Source: a virus
Length of the DNA: 64,000 nt
Direction: 5' to 3' (one strand)
Virus record (IMG/VR): IMGVR_UViG_3300045988_154892
Under the pieces are notes generated by a model. The model did not search any database, was not told where the DNA came from, and saw nothing but the letters and a program-made list of their open reading frames with translations. Position 1 is the first letter of the stretch. Every line of letters starts with the position of its first letter. The translations under genes were made by a program, and so were the position numbers. Shown here piece by piece: positions 6,485 to 32,147 of this stretch.

Positions 6485-7175
6485 CTAAATTGAAATTTCA
6501 TATTGCGTTGTAGTTTCAAAAGATTGTCCATCTTTTTCAACAGTGCATACAATATCAAGTATATGATCTAAATAAGTTCTATCATTTGGAAATTTAATTT
6601 TGATTTGATTGTTAGATTTAACTACAAACCATGTAACCTTTTCAGTTAAGTCTTCTTCATCGACCGAACATTTCCATGAAAAAGTTGCATTAGAATAGTT
6701 GTCCGTTATCTCATTATGATCATCGTCATAAATCTTTAACGTTAATAACTTATAAGTGCCTCCAACTTTAATTTTTGGAGTAGAAGATATGATTTCAGAA
6801 TTTAATTTATTTGTAATAGGATCTGGTTCGATTGGCTCAATATCAGAATCATAATAATCAGCCCACATTCCTATAATATTTCCATCAGAATCTTTTTCAA
6901 TATAATCTTTGTTTTGATCAAAATAATCCTGATAGATAACAAGCTTCTGAATACCAATTGGTTGCGCATTTTCCACTTTACTGATTTTCCATGCTACAGG
7001 ATGATCGGTATAGGCACTAACTAAAACACGCATATTTTTGTTTTGGTCTGTTGAATACCAGATTTTTTCTGTAATACGGTTAAGAGGAAGCCAGATTTTA
7101 TCCTGGTTCTCTTGTTTTGTCATATATGTATCAGTCCAAAGGCCGCTGTTGTCTTGTAATGTGTTACTTTGCAAA
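6485..7175 (-). CDS. virion-module protein, proposed exon 2 (C-terminal half) of an intron-split gene
   Basis: The frame is open from 7192 but has no ATG or RBS; the ORF track starts it at a TTG. It joins in frame to 7468-8024 if 7176-7467 is removed. Confidence 0.5.
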
Positions 7176-7467
7176 CACGCTACGTTTACAAAGAATTATT
7201 TATAAAATAATTTTTCTCTATGTCTCCATAGAGTTCAGAGCACATCAACACCATATCTAAAAAGACTTAGGTGGTTCCCATTAACCCGCTTGGGTACTTG
7301 CTCGTTGAACGTTCTTCCTACATAAATAAGAAGCTTCACTGCTGATTGTCTCTATTTATCAGATTGTCACACTTAACTGTACTGATAACCTAACAAGATT
7401 TCCCAGCATAAAGAGAACTTTCGACATACCGTTTCCGATATGAAGCGCACAACTATACGAACTTTGC
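7176..7467 (-). ncRNA. candidate group I self-splicing intron (ORF-less)
   Basis: Exon end GAGAAU pairs with internal GUUCUC (7418-7413) with a U-G at the junction. The last intron nucleotide is G (7176). Two GNRA-capped hairpins (7442-7425 GAAA, 7233-7216 GAGA). Excision keeps the reading frame. Confidence 0.5.
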
Positions 7468-8024
7468 ATTCTCAAGACTGCCCACATTTTCCTCTTAATT
7501 TTTCTATGACCATCTCGTTCAACCCATTCCAACTGATAATTGCATGGAAGGACAGAATATTTAATGAATTGATTCCCTATGTTTTTTGAAACAATCATCC
7601 ATTTTTCATAGACGCCCATATCATTGGGTAAATCCACGTAAAAACCGATCGGAAATTGCGTTTTGAATTTCCTGTGATAATCTGTTTCAAAATAATATAA
7701 GTCATCATTTTCTTCAAAGGTAAGTTTTTGTCTTGGACGAAATTGTAAATGATATTCGACTTGATCTTGTGATATTGATCCATACTGAGTTACAATAAAT
7801 TTTGCATCAATAGGTGTTTTAGTTGTATTTTCATAGGTCATATTCTGATTTTTATCTGGCTGGTCATCATGGTAAAAATCATAGATATAACACTTTTTGG
7901 ATTGGATATCGTTATCCCAGGTAAGATCCATAAGGTCATCAGATATGTTTTTCAGATTTTCGCCTACAGTACCAGATATCCCTACTGCTTGATACATTTT
8001 TTGCATTTCTTCAAATGAAGGCAT
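7468..8024 (-). CDS. virion-module protein, proposed exon 1 (N-terminal half)
   Basis: Start at MPSFEEMQKMYQ (ATG 8024-8022) behind a GAGGAGG RBS. If unspliced it reads through about 35 unrelated codons to a stop at 7359. Confidence 0.55.
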
Positions 8025-8028
8025 AGTA

Positions 8029-8358
8029 TTACACCTCCTCAATCTTAAGAACTGCCATTCCAGCATCCAATATTAGTTTTCTATATTTCCAGTATTTAAA
8101 CATTGGACTGTTGTAAAGATTTTGAGCTGCTTGCAACAAACTCATTGTGTCCGCAATAGCGAGAGGATATAGTAGAAGAGTGTTGTACCCATCTAATTTA
8201 TCCAACAAATTCTCAAAAGTTTTATTGACATCGACATTTGGATAGCTATCCGCTGTTTTTGGATCTACACACAATAATAAAAAGAAAATTGATCCACGAA
8301 TTGATTTTTGAATCTCTTCAACTTGATTATGAGGTATATTGCCATATAAATATTTCAT
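8029..8358 (-). CDS. hypothetical head-tail region protein
   Basis: 109-aa ORF overlapping the upstream ORF by 4 nt. Confidence 0.6.
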   Translation of the reverse strand: MKYLYGNIPHNQVEEIQKSIRGSIFFLLLCVDPKTADSYPNVDVNKTFENLLDKLDGYNTLLLYPLAIADTMSLLQAAQNLYNSPMFKYWKYRKLILDAGMAVLKIEEV

Positions 8359-20468: not shown

Positions 20469-20551
20469 TACCGGCAGCGAGACTCGAACTCGCACTGCTC
20501 ATAACAATCTGGGCTTAAACCAGATGTGTCTACCAATTCCACCATACCGGC
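20469..20551 (-). tRNA. tRNA-Leu (anticodon UAA), class II
   Basis: Hand-folded cloverleaf: GCCGGUA acceptor, GUGG-AAUUGGUAGA-CAC D-arm, UCUGG-UUUAAGC-CCAGA anticodon arm, long variable arm, GCGAG-UUCGAGU-CUCGC T-arm. Confidence 0.8.
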
Positions 20552-20586
20552 ATACGGAGGCACTGCCTCCATTCGCTAATTATATA

Positions 20587-20676
20587 CGGAGCCTGTGGGA
20601 TTCGAACCCACGCGCCGTTGTTAGCGGCCTGTCAGTTTTCAGGACTGATCTCTTCATCCAACTTGAGTAAAGCTCC
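20587..20676 (-). tRNA. tRNA-Ser-like (anticodon UGA), class II, unusual C at position 33
   Basis: GGAGCUU acceptor, UCAGU-CCUGAAA-ACUGA anticodon arm, GCCG-cuaacaa-CGGC variable arm, GUGGG-UUCGAAU-CCCAC T-arm. Confidence 0.65.
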
Positions 20677-20686
20677 AAAACAAAAA

Positions 20687-20770
20687 TGAGCAGAGTAGGA
20701 GTCGAACCTACGGTGTTTCTAATGTGACGGATTTACAGTCCGTTGCTATCGCCACTAAGCACATCTGCCC
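20687..20770 (-). tRNA. tRNA-Tyr (anticodon GUA), class II
   Basis: GGGCAGA acceptor (one G-U pair), ACGGA-CUGUAAA-UCCGU anticodon arm, GUAGG-UUCGACU-CCUAC T-arm. One extra nucleotide before the D-stem. Confidence 0.75.
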
Positions 20771-25905: not shown

Positions 25906-25977
25906 CAGGAAGTCAGGGATTCGAACCCTGATTGACAGTTTTGGAGACTGTCGTGTTGCCAATTACACTAACGACCT
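25906..25977 (-). tRNA. tRNA-Trp (anticodon CCA) with two acceptor-stem mismatches
   Basis: GUGU-AAUUGGCA-ACAC D-arm, ACAGU-CUCCAAA-ACUGU anticodon arm, CAGGG-UUCGAAU-CCCUG T-arm. Acceptor AGGUCGU/ACUUCCU has U4-U69 and C5-U68. Confidence 0.6.
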
Positions 25978-31200: not shown

Positions 31201-31274
31201 TTGGGGTGGTAGGACTCGAACCCACGACCGTTCGGATATAAGCCGAATGCTCTCACCAACTGAGCTACACCGCA
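31201..31274 (-). tRNA. tRNA-Ile (anticodon UAU)
   Basis: UGCGGUG acceptor (C3-C70 mismatch), GCUC-AGUUGGUGA-GAGC D-arm, UUCGG-CUUAUAU-CCGAA anticodon arm, GUGGG-UUCGAGU-CCUAC T-arm. Confidence 0.7.
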
Positions 31275-32147
31275 ATAATGCTACATAAGTAGCAAAATAA
31301 GTACGCTGAGATTAAACGTATCTTCGGAAACCTTTACCGACATTATTTTTTCTTCGGTTATCCACTATATGTTGCTTGCGCACACATATAGTATCTTCCA
31401 CAACCGCCTTTTAAGAAGAGGCTTATCTTCTTTGCTGTATGACTACTCAAGTTTCATCATTCCATTAACACTGCCGTGCTACAAATCTCTGCTAAGAGAA
31501 CTGTGCAGAATCCGCTTAACACATCCAGATATTGCGTATCTTTCAGTGTGTGTATTACCTCAAAAGAGATTACACATTTTGGCTGCTTACACCATACAGA
31601 GGTACAGACTTTCGCTTGTATAATTTGTTTACCTTTTGCATTAAACCAATTTTTATATTCTTCCTGAATATACTAATTAATAGAAACGAAATTGAATACA
31701 GAAGACGCGCTGCACCAGATGTTTCGTTATCTTTTGGATAACAAAATCCATCACGCCTTCGTAGCTTTCGGTTATAATCCCTACTCGCATCCTGCATAAG
31801 CTAATTTGGCATCTCTACCAATTCACTTACCCAAATGGACATCGCACTTGTCTAATAAGGACTCGCACTATATATCCTCCTAATTCCCCATCATATCTTC
31901 ATAGGTTCGCGTGAGCTATTCTGTTGCGCAGAAAAATGATTCTCAGCGGTTGCCCCTGAATCACCTTGTTGCTCCCTATTTCCTGACACTATTTCCACAC
32001 AGGATTTACTCGTTTTACCGGTATGAAACAGCACTTTTTGAGTGCCTGGGATGTTAGTTTTGCATAGATTGACCAATTTTCATGGCGACGAGTTGTAAAT
32101 TCGCCTTTAATACGCTCACACGCATCTATCTGTGCTATGCCACGAGT
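31275..32147 (-). ncRNA. large ORF-free structured region, candidate giant ncRNA (GOLLD/ROOL-like context)
   Basis: About 870 nt without a credible ORF, flanked by tRNA(-like) genes. Many minus-strand-specific helices including GNRA-capped 31391-31365 and an 11-bp helix at 31576-31549. Confidence 0.45.

Follow-up and report, generated by a model that had tools for sequence, protein, structure and literature searches.

In a 64,000-nt stretch of viral DNA (IMG/VR record IMGVR_UViG_3300045988_154892; the whole of this stretch is referred to here as the window) we identified what is very probably a 304-nt group I intron at positions 7153-7456 on the minus strand, interrupting a conserved gene of the phage virion module. 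Removal of these 304 nt restores the conserved frame of a 411-aa protein, alleles lacking the insert occur in close relatives, and a family of introns occupies the same site in other viral contigs. Splicing itself, which we infer from the sequence rather than from RNA, is held with somewhat less confidence than the presence of the intron and the position of its ends.

The interrupted gene and its intron-less alleles

Two minus-strand open reading frames (ORFs), 7359-8066 and 6485-7174, lie about 180 nt apart in the window. An earlier reading of the window, made from its letters without database searches (the sequence-only reading), had taken them for two halves of a single gene. When they were joined and used as a query, a protein database search returned more than 1500 homologs, the top ones being single uninterrupted proteins of 411 aa that are 87-94% identical at 100% query coverage. 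Since these homologs span the entire joined query, the two ORFs are indeed halves of one gene. Translation of the upstream ORF probably starts from the ATG at 8024-8022, with GAGGAGG ahead of it, and exon 1 closes with U7457, which opens the Tyr190 codon. Beyond this last conserved residue the upstream ORF runs on through non-homologous codons (7456-7362) to a stop at 7361-7359; the odd tail noticed earlier is therefore present, at 32 codons rather than about 35. The downstream ORF, as had also been noticed, has neither an ATG nor a Shine-Dalgarno sequence and its TTG start is merely mechanical. Exons 1 and 2 together comprise 1236 nt (411 codons plus a stop), and the gene model supported by these comparisons is join(8024..7457, 7152..6485) on the minus strand, predicted to yield a 411-aa protein. 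Public gene calls for this allele (6485-8066; also L084) consist of two proteins of 221 and 229 aa, the latter beginning at a TTG within the P9.2 stem of the intron. These separate calls are annotation artefacts of an unrecognised intron.

The ends of the insert were set by three intron-less alleles (L001-L003), which share 90% nucleotide identity with the window over the coding sequence and 94-95% identity at the amino acid level. They read ..AGG TTG CAA AGC TCC TAT / AAT TCG GGA TTG TGG.. and the window reads ..AGA ATG CAA AGT TCG TAT [304 nt] AAC AGC GGC CTT TGG.., so that the alignment demonstrates a 304-nt insert between the Tyr (TAT) and Asn (AAC) codons. The empty site of these alleles, TTGCAAAGCTCCTATAAT, has unbroken homology to both exons. 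Only one in-frame cut leaves a terminal U on exon 1 and a terminal G on the intron, namely U7457 / A7456-G7153 / A7152. The spliced junction predicted from this cut is ..AGTTCGT/ACAACAGC.. in DNA (that is, ..CAAAGTTCGT/ACAACAGCGGC..), ..AGU UCG U/AC AAC AGC.. in mRNA and ..LRMQSSYNSGLWTD.. in protein, which is colinear with all homologs, and the junction-spanning peptide of the predicted 411-aa protein would be ..MQSSYNSGLWTDTYMTK.. All homologs read R-x-Q-[SN]-S-Y-N-[SA]-G, with Q187, S189, Y190, N191 and G193 invariant. A candidate 3′ splice site at G7167 (..RINTLQ..) was discarded, as it violates both the terminal U and G rules and the homolog alignment. Features are collected in Table 1.

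Table 1. Predicted anatomy of the intron and its flanking exons, in transcript order (positions are those of the window)
Feature	Position	Strand	Description
Exon 1, split virion-module gene	7457..8024	-	From sequence; colinear with intron-less homologs to ..MQSSY
Probable group I intron	7153..7456	-	304 nt, no ORF; phase 1, between U and AC of a Tyr codon
P1 hairpin	7446..7459	-	(U)CGU/A and UGCG invariant in all 60 loci
P2	7425..7442	-	7 bp, GAAA loop; 100% canonical, 3 pairs changed on both sides
P3 5′ strand GUUCUC	7413..7418	-	Pairs with 7279-7274; UA/CG/AU covariation, 100% canonical
P4-P5-P5a	7340..7408	-	P4 7408-7403/7345-7340; P5 7398-7395/7352-7349; P5a 7388-7382/7362-7356
P6a hairpin	7314..7333	-	97% canonical, 3 compensatory pairs
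P7 5′ strand GAGCA	7299..7303	-	Pairs with UGCUC 7242-7238 (by inspection)
Extra hairpin between P7 and P3′ (P7.1-like), ACCC-AAGC-GGGU	7284..7295	-	99% canonical, 3 compensatory pairs
P3 3′ strand GGGAAC	7274..7279	-	From Rfam and family alignments
P8	7249..7273	-	From Rfam alignment, minimum free energy fold and covariation
P7 3′ strand UGCUC	7238..7242	-	J8/7 segment GUUGAUG lies just before
P9	7216..7233	-	7 bp, GAGA loop
P9.1 hairpin	7194..7212	-	Loop in the window only UAU; LAGLIDADG gene there in long relatives
P9.2 hairpin CUUUGUAAAC / GUUUGCAAAG	7167..7193	-	10 bp (7193-7184/7176-7167); 100% canonical, 5 compensatory pairs
Terminal G (omega G)	7153	-	After UAACA and an A-rich linker; 45/45 resolved single-intron relatives end ..G/AYA
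P10 exon-2 strand ACAAC	7148..7152	-	Pairs with GUUGU (7453-7449), immediately 5′ of guide G7448
Exon 2	6485..7152	-	Starts ACAACAGCGGC; completes Tyr190, then NSGLWTD...; includes the stop codon

A family of introns at one site

A protein-guided scan of viral contigs yielded the first relatives (L019, L020 and L021), in which the gene is interrupted at the same place. The conserved region from the P1 3′ strand through P2 was then used to query viral contigs, giving 60 loci, all of which carry an intron in the same gene at the same site, with exon 1 ending ..TCGT and followed by A. For 45 of these loci a 3′ end could be assigned, and they represent 32 distinct introns of 304-1362 nt, of which the window copy is the shortest. 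In all 45 the 3′ junction defined by the protein is ..G/A(U/C)A. It is preceded by a common 3′ hairpin, CUUUnnnnn...nnnnnAAAG, then UAAC(A), a short A-rich linker and the terminal G.

An ORF of 281-291 aa with a LAGLIDADG_3 domain lies in the P9.1 loop of the members that are 1243-1362 nt long. No intron-encoded homing endonuclease is present in the window copy, whose 304 nt leave no room for an ORF and whose P9.1 loop is 3 nt long. The window copy may thus be a derivative that has lost its endonuclease gene. The nearest intron relatives of the window copy are L035 and L032, both 79% identical, and the closest relatives of its gene (90% nucleotide identity) are intron-less. Compared with L021, the intron is 83% identical and the flanking exons 68%. 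Patchy presence together with an intron that is more conserved than its host gene is as expected of a mobile or recently mobile intron; the data are consistent with this, short of proving homing. Moreover, the identical intron-bearing allele is recorded in 54 blocks of the assembly collection, on no fewer than 24 contigs, including one (L084) identical to the window over 3.7 kb. Therefore, phages with this arrangement circulate, which argues against a dead gene.

Some relatives have two introns in this gene. In L019 (2059-2340, 2418-2754) two tandem group I introns are separated by a 24-nt mini-exon, and a tandem arrangement is also seen in L025, L034, L037, L038 and others, the second site lying 8 codons downstream. 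The two introns of L019 score 29 and 45.7 bits in Rfam, both below the gathering score. Only the first of the two sites is occupied in the window. A homologous gene in a metagenome-assembled genome (MAG) of an uncultured Clostridia bacterium (L090, match 1001-2592) is about 360 nt longer than its coding length, which suggests a further intron-bearing copy in a bacterial bin; an Rfam scan of L090 at the gathering threshold gave no match.

The group I core and its covariation

The covariance model for group I introns (RF00028; gathering threshold 50 bits) was searched against 901 nt around the insert (6900-7800). This check, which the sequence-only reading had proposed, was positive in that the full model (1-253) matched at 7216-7475 on the minus strand (39.6 bits, E 1.8e-8 locally), and fell short in that the score lies below gathering. 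The alignment identifies P2, P3, P4, P5, P6, P8 and P9. Introns at the same site in relatives do exceed the gathering score (L021 67.8, L032 61.1 and L047 53.5 bits), and therefore the shortfall of the window copy reflects the sensitivity of the model and not a missing core. Every helix of the P3-P8 core, with its P3/P7 pseudoknot, can form in the window copy.

Folding of the isolated 304-nt RNA gave -82.3 kcal/mol against -64.0 +/- 4.3 for shuffled sequences (z = -4.26), with none of 100 shuffles as stable. The minimum free energy structure recovers P2, P4-P6, P7, the extra hairpin after P7, P8, P9, P9.1 and P9.2.

Covariation was assessed by mapping the helices of the window copy onto a MAFFT alignment of 31 distinct family sequences from which endonuclease ORFs had been trimmed. 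The 65 pairs examined are canonical in 94% of cells, and 39 of them have changed on both sides, against 38-46% and 3-13 pairs in controls where the 3′ partner was slid by 1-3 columns. Compensatory changes occur in P2, P3, P4, P5, P6a, P7, the P7.1-like hairpin, P8, P9, P9.1 and P9.2. Double-sided changes affect 20 of the 33 pairs of the P3-P8 core, whose helices are canonical in 100% (P3), 91% (P4), 88% (P5), 97% (P6a), 99% (P7) and 98% (P8) of cells. P7, for instance, appears in relatives as GGUCA/UGACC and GAGUA/UACUC. P5a is found in the short members alone, and relatives have bigger P5 extensions. Among the other 30 sequences 112 columns show no variation, and the window copy agrees with 105 of these.

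Several helices had already been glimpsed in the letters. The two GNRA-capped hairpins picked out earlier exist, CAUAUCG-GAAA-CGGUAUG being P2 (7442-7425) and CUCUAUG-GAGA-CAUAGAG being P9 (7233-7216). The 7-bp helix UUAUCAG/CUGAUAA is likewise real, but it is P5a rather than a P2-like element. A further proposed pairing, AGAGAC/GUCUUU (7349-7354, 7261-7266), is canonical in 71% of cells compared with about 40% in slid controls; its strands are already engaged in the better-supported P5 and P8, and similarity between strand sequences is the probable source of this pairing.

P1, the internal guide and P10

In the window copy the P1 pairs are C7459-G7446, G7458-C7447, the splice-site wobble U7457.G7448, A7456-U7449 and U7455.G7450, closed by a 4-nt loop (AGUU), and the internal guide is UGUGCG (7451-7446). 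The bases of the wobble at the 5′ splice site are invariant in the 60 loci. Exon positions -4 and -5 vary in relatives (UU, AU, GU, CU, CA) and the guide is unchanged, so there is no compensation there. Because the P1 bases never vary, P1 is supported by conservation and geometry, and not by covariation. The sequence-only reading had placed the guide at GUUCUC (7418-7413), which is in fact the 5′ strand of P3 and pairs, with compensatory changes, to GGGAAC (7279-7274). The unusually long P1 loop that it had listed as a caveat disappears with that assignment, the real P1 being a short hairpin.

P10 was also misplaced in the earlier reading, and the supported pairing is between ACAAC of exon 2 and GUUGU (7453-7449). 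Across the family, exon-2 position +2 and its P10 partner are U-A in 21 sequences, C-G in 4 and C-A in 6, and position +4 and its partner are C-G in 21, A-U in 6 and C-U in 4. This covariation with exon 2 supplies independent support for the placement of P1 and the guide. The window copy thus has both a terminal G, G7153, and an exon 2 capable of forming P10.

Two other registers for P1 were considered and rejected. The Rfam alignment selects a wobble of U7468 with G7446, but the exon bases concerned vary freely in relatives and 7468-7457 is coding. A longer P1 of 8 bp (A7464-U7443 ... U7457.G7450) fits the window and L021, but in most relatives an A stands in place of G7450. The 8-bp register also fails on adjacency to P10, since the short register alone puts P10 directly beside the guide G.

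Proposed splicing and a possible role for the P9.2 loop

By analogy with known group I introns, we expect guanosine-dependent self-splicing by the standard pathway. The late transcript would fold into P1-P10, with CGU of exon 1 paired to the guide GCG (7448-7446) and the U7457.G7448 wobble at the splice site. An exogenous guanosine bound in P7 would attack the bond after U7457. The terminal G7153 would then take over the G site, with ACAAC of exon 2 held on GUUGU (P10), and the free 3′-OH of U7457 would attack after G7153, ligating the exons to give ..MQSSYNSGLW.. From unspliced RNA, only a truncated 221-aa product would be made, consisting of 189 genuine and 32 intron-encoded residues and ending at the stop at 7361-7359.

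The family (L020-L083) conserves UAACGA as the loop of P9.2, for which the window has UAGCGU (7183-7177). The ACGA of this family loop is complementary to UCGU, at the invariant end of exon 1, and equally to UCG of the J2/3 segment GUCGAAAG, which is invariant too. In the window copy, GCG of the loop could pair with exon-1 CGU, as the guide does. The loop might be a second element that recognises exon 1, competing with P1 or assisting it, although we regard this as a speculative idea with little chance of being correct. If true, the P9.2 loop would be a built-in switch of 5′ splice-site use and hence of the timing of a late virion protein. Alternatively, a partnership with J2/3 GUCGAAAG would make it an ordinary tertiary contact.

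Alternative explanations

Several observations weigh against a functional intron with these ends. The window copy scores 39.6 bits against a threshold of 50, and Rfam scans of the whole window, both at gathering and at E <= 0.001, returned no intron match. It deviates from the family at 7 otherwise invariant columns, including positions in J3/4 and the P9.2 loop. P1 is short (3 bp with the exon and 1-2 bp within the intron) and its invariance in the family precludes covariation, and the Rfam alignment prefers the other P1 register described above. As a refutation, however, the lack of an Rfam hit would be false, since the 901-nt local scan alone finds the intron.

The low score, the 7 altered columns, the missing endonuclease gene and the two proteins of 221 and 229 aa given by gene callers could all be read as signs of a decayed, non-splicing relic that leaves the gene broken, either as a pseudogene or as two polypeptides made separately. 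Such decay sits poorly with the 105 of 112 invariant columns that are kept and with helices that can all still form. Both exons are open and encode a protein 95% identical to intact homologs, and exon 2 offers no ATG or Shine-Dalgarno sequence from which a separate polypeptide could start. Moreover, the same allele recurs without change across many contigs and samples, a pattern not likely in a phage whose conserved virion gene is dead. We therefore consider a relic very unlikely.

It is more improbable still that the intron is real and is spliced where the sequence-only reading placed its ends, after U7468 and after G7176, to give a 415-aa protein with ..RILQSNTLQDNSG.. and a junction of ..GAGAAT/TTTGCAAAG.. 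Removal of 7176-7467 does join the ORFs in frame, as an arithmetic check confirmed, the Rfam P1 alignment has a U.G wobble at U7468.G7446, and no in-frame G other than G7176 is available from the upstream stop (7198-7196) to the TTG at 7174. Yet judged by the intron-less DNA and 45 intron-bearing relatives, these ends are off by 11 nt on the 5′ side and 23 nt on the 3′ side of 7456/7153. When the joined protein was aligned to 14 homologs, as had been recommended, ..WAVLR-I-LQSNTLQD-NSG.. proved 4 residues longer than every close homolog, lost Q-S-S-Y and replaced the invariant S189-Y190; the spliced protein supported instead is ..RMQSSYNSG.. At the 5′ side, 7468-7457 is colinear with intron-less coding sequence, and the corresponding exon bases vary so freely in relatives that they cannot form that P1. 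At the 3′ side, G7176, taken earlier for the last intron base, is the first base of the P9.2 3′ strand and is paired within this covarying hairpin, and 45 of 45 resolved relatives have their 3′ junction downstream of it.

An 8-nt direct repeat, TGCAAAGT, does occur at 7461-7468 and 7166-7173, as the sequence-only reading had noted. Five copies were found in the window, where 3.3 +/- 1.95 would be expected. The 5′ copy belongs to the exon, encoding Met-Gln-Ser and colinear with TTG CAA AGC of the intron-less alleles, and the 3′ copy consists of the last bases of the P9.2 stem and the U of UAACA. P9.2, which contains both G7176 and this 3′ copy, is present with covariation in every relative; the exon sequences differ there and the repeat is absent. 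Excision of the 295-nt unit that the repeats define (..RMQSNTLQ..) is in frame but breaks both the U and G rules and the homolog alignment. Since the insertion is not bracketed by these copies, the idea of a target duplication was rejected. A small non-intron insertion, of the type of a miniature inverted-repeat transposable element or insertion sequence, that duplicated an 8-bp target is barely credible despite the exact copies of TGCAAAGT, because the intron-less alleles set the ends at 7456/7153 and not at the repeats (7468-7461, 7173-7166), the copies belong to exon and to the P9.2 3′ strand, relatives lack the repeat, TGCAAAGT is not rare in the window, and the insert itself contains a covarying group I core.

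Comparison with known introns

The IA2-type phage introns include those of T4 td, nrdB and sunY and of orf142 of Staphylococcus phage Twort. They have P7.1 and P7.2 between P7 and P3′, and their host genes belong to nucleotide metabolism. The architecture of the window intron resembles that of this type (T4 td, sunY, Twort). With IA2 structures it shares the order P1-P2-P3-P4-P5-P6-P7-extra hairpin-P3′-P8-P7′-P9-P9.1-P9.2, an endonuclease gene located in a peripheral loop (P9.1) and a short P1. It differs in that a single covarying hairpin (7295-7284) was found between P7 and P3′, without a second, with P9.1 and P9.2 present, and in that the host gene is that of a virion protein.

Introns in phage structural genes have been described before. 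In Cluster J mycobacteriophages, group I introns interrupt a minor tail gene of BAKA and Optimus (265 bp, ORF-less) and the capsid gene of LittleE (819 bp, HNH); these were shown to splice by reverse transcription PCR (RT-PCR), the BAKA and Optimus intron having U and G boundaries, and the capsid gene of Tuc2009 holds a further spliced example (PMC3706429). As in Cluster J, the introns studied here are small, lie in late structural genes with intron-less alleles in close relatives, have a terminal U on exon 1 and a terminal G on the intron, and occur in both ORF-less and endonuclease-bearing versions. The likeness considered here is one of architecture; the phage lineage and host phylum are different, the endonuclease is LAGLIDADG rather than HNH, and the Cluster J introns are verified by RT-PCR whereas splicing of the window intron is deduced.

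Among GenBank phages, the only match is to Clostridioides phage ES-S-0107-01 (CP067347; L004 1434-1701), at 78% over 75 nt covering P3-P5. This phage is unannotated, and the intron, which lies within CP067347.1 104467-107540, scores 96.1 bits with RF00028. There too the intron splits a late structural-type gene, a long ORF resembling a tape-measure protein, but the host gene and insertion site differ and BLAST aligns only part of the core. In jumbo (Jug) phages of the human gut, thousands of group I introns have been predicted and about half of those tested had metatranscriptome support (PMC12880540). As here, the phages come from the gut and are uncultivated, and the introns, detected with covariance models, interrupt essential genes; unlike the window intron, they average about 206 nt, lie mainly in terL, nrdD and DNA polymerase genes, and belong to phages whose predicted hosts are Bacteroides or Phocaeicola (PMC12880540).

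The host gene, its phage and other features of the window

The interrupted gene belongs to PHROG 5251, whose annotated function is unknown. No match was obtained in Pfam, among PDB sequences or, by protein search, in GenBank phages; by DNA, the sole match in GenBank phages is the 75-nt segment of the intron core, with none to the host gene. An AlphaFold2 model of the predicted spliced protein has a mean predicted local distance difference test (pLDDT) score of 56 and is confident solely in a C-terminal beta-sandwich (about residues 305-411). Counted in intron-less relatives, a gene of the capsid-like YonB family is found four genes upstream of the interrupted gene and a YomU_Tube gene three genes downstream. 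This placement puts it in a virion module of SPbeta type, of which, on gene order, we take it to be a conserved member. The host gene has relatives in MAGs classified as Lachnospiraceae, Blautia, Kineothrix and other Clostridia; with the usual caveat of MAG binning, this uncultivated gut phage probably infects Lachnospiraceae.

Elsewhere in the window there is a full-length GOLLD RNA at 31303-31761 on the minus strand (RF02032, 195.9 bits against a gathering score of 150), adjoining a tRNA gene at 31201-31274 (minus strand). Three tRNA genes lie within 300 nt at 20469-20770 and another at 25906-25977, all on the minus strand.

Significance

For annotation, this locus is a case in which gene callers split a conserved virion gene into two false proteins and the intron responsible goes undetected by Rfam at the gathering threshold. 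The window intron is an ordinary addition to a well-known type of element and leaves the understanding of group I introns unchanged. It adds one case of a group I intron with a probable cycle of LAGLIDADG gain and loss, confined to one putative homing site of a late structural gene. Moreover, the family to which it belongs is now documented in a large clade of uncultivated phages, probably of gut Lachnospiraceae.

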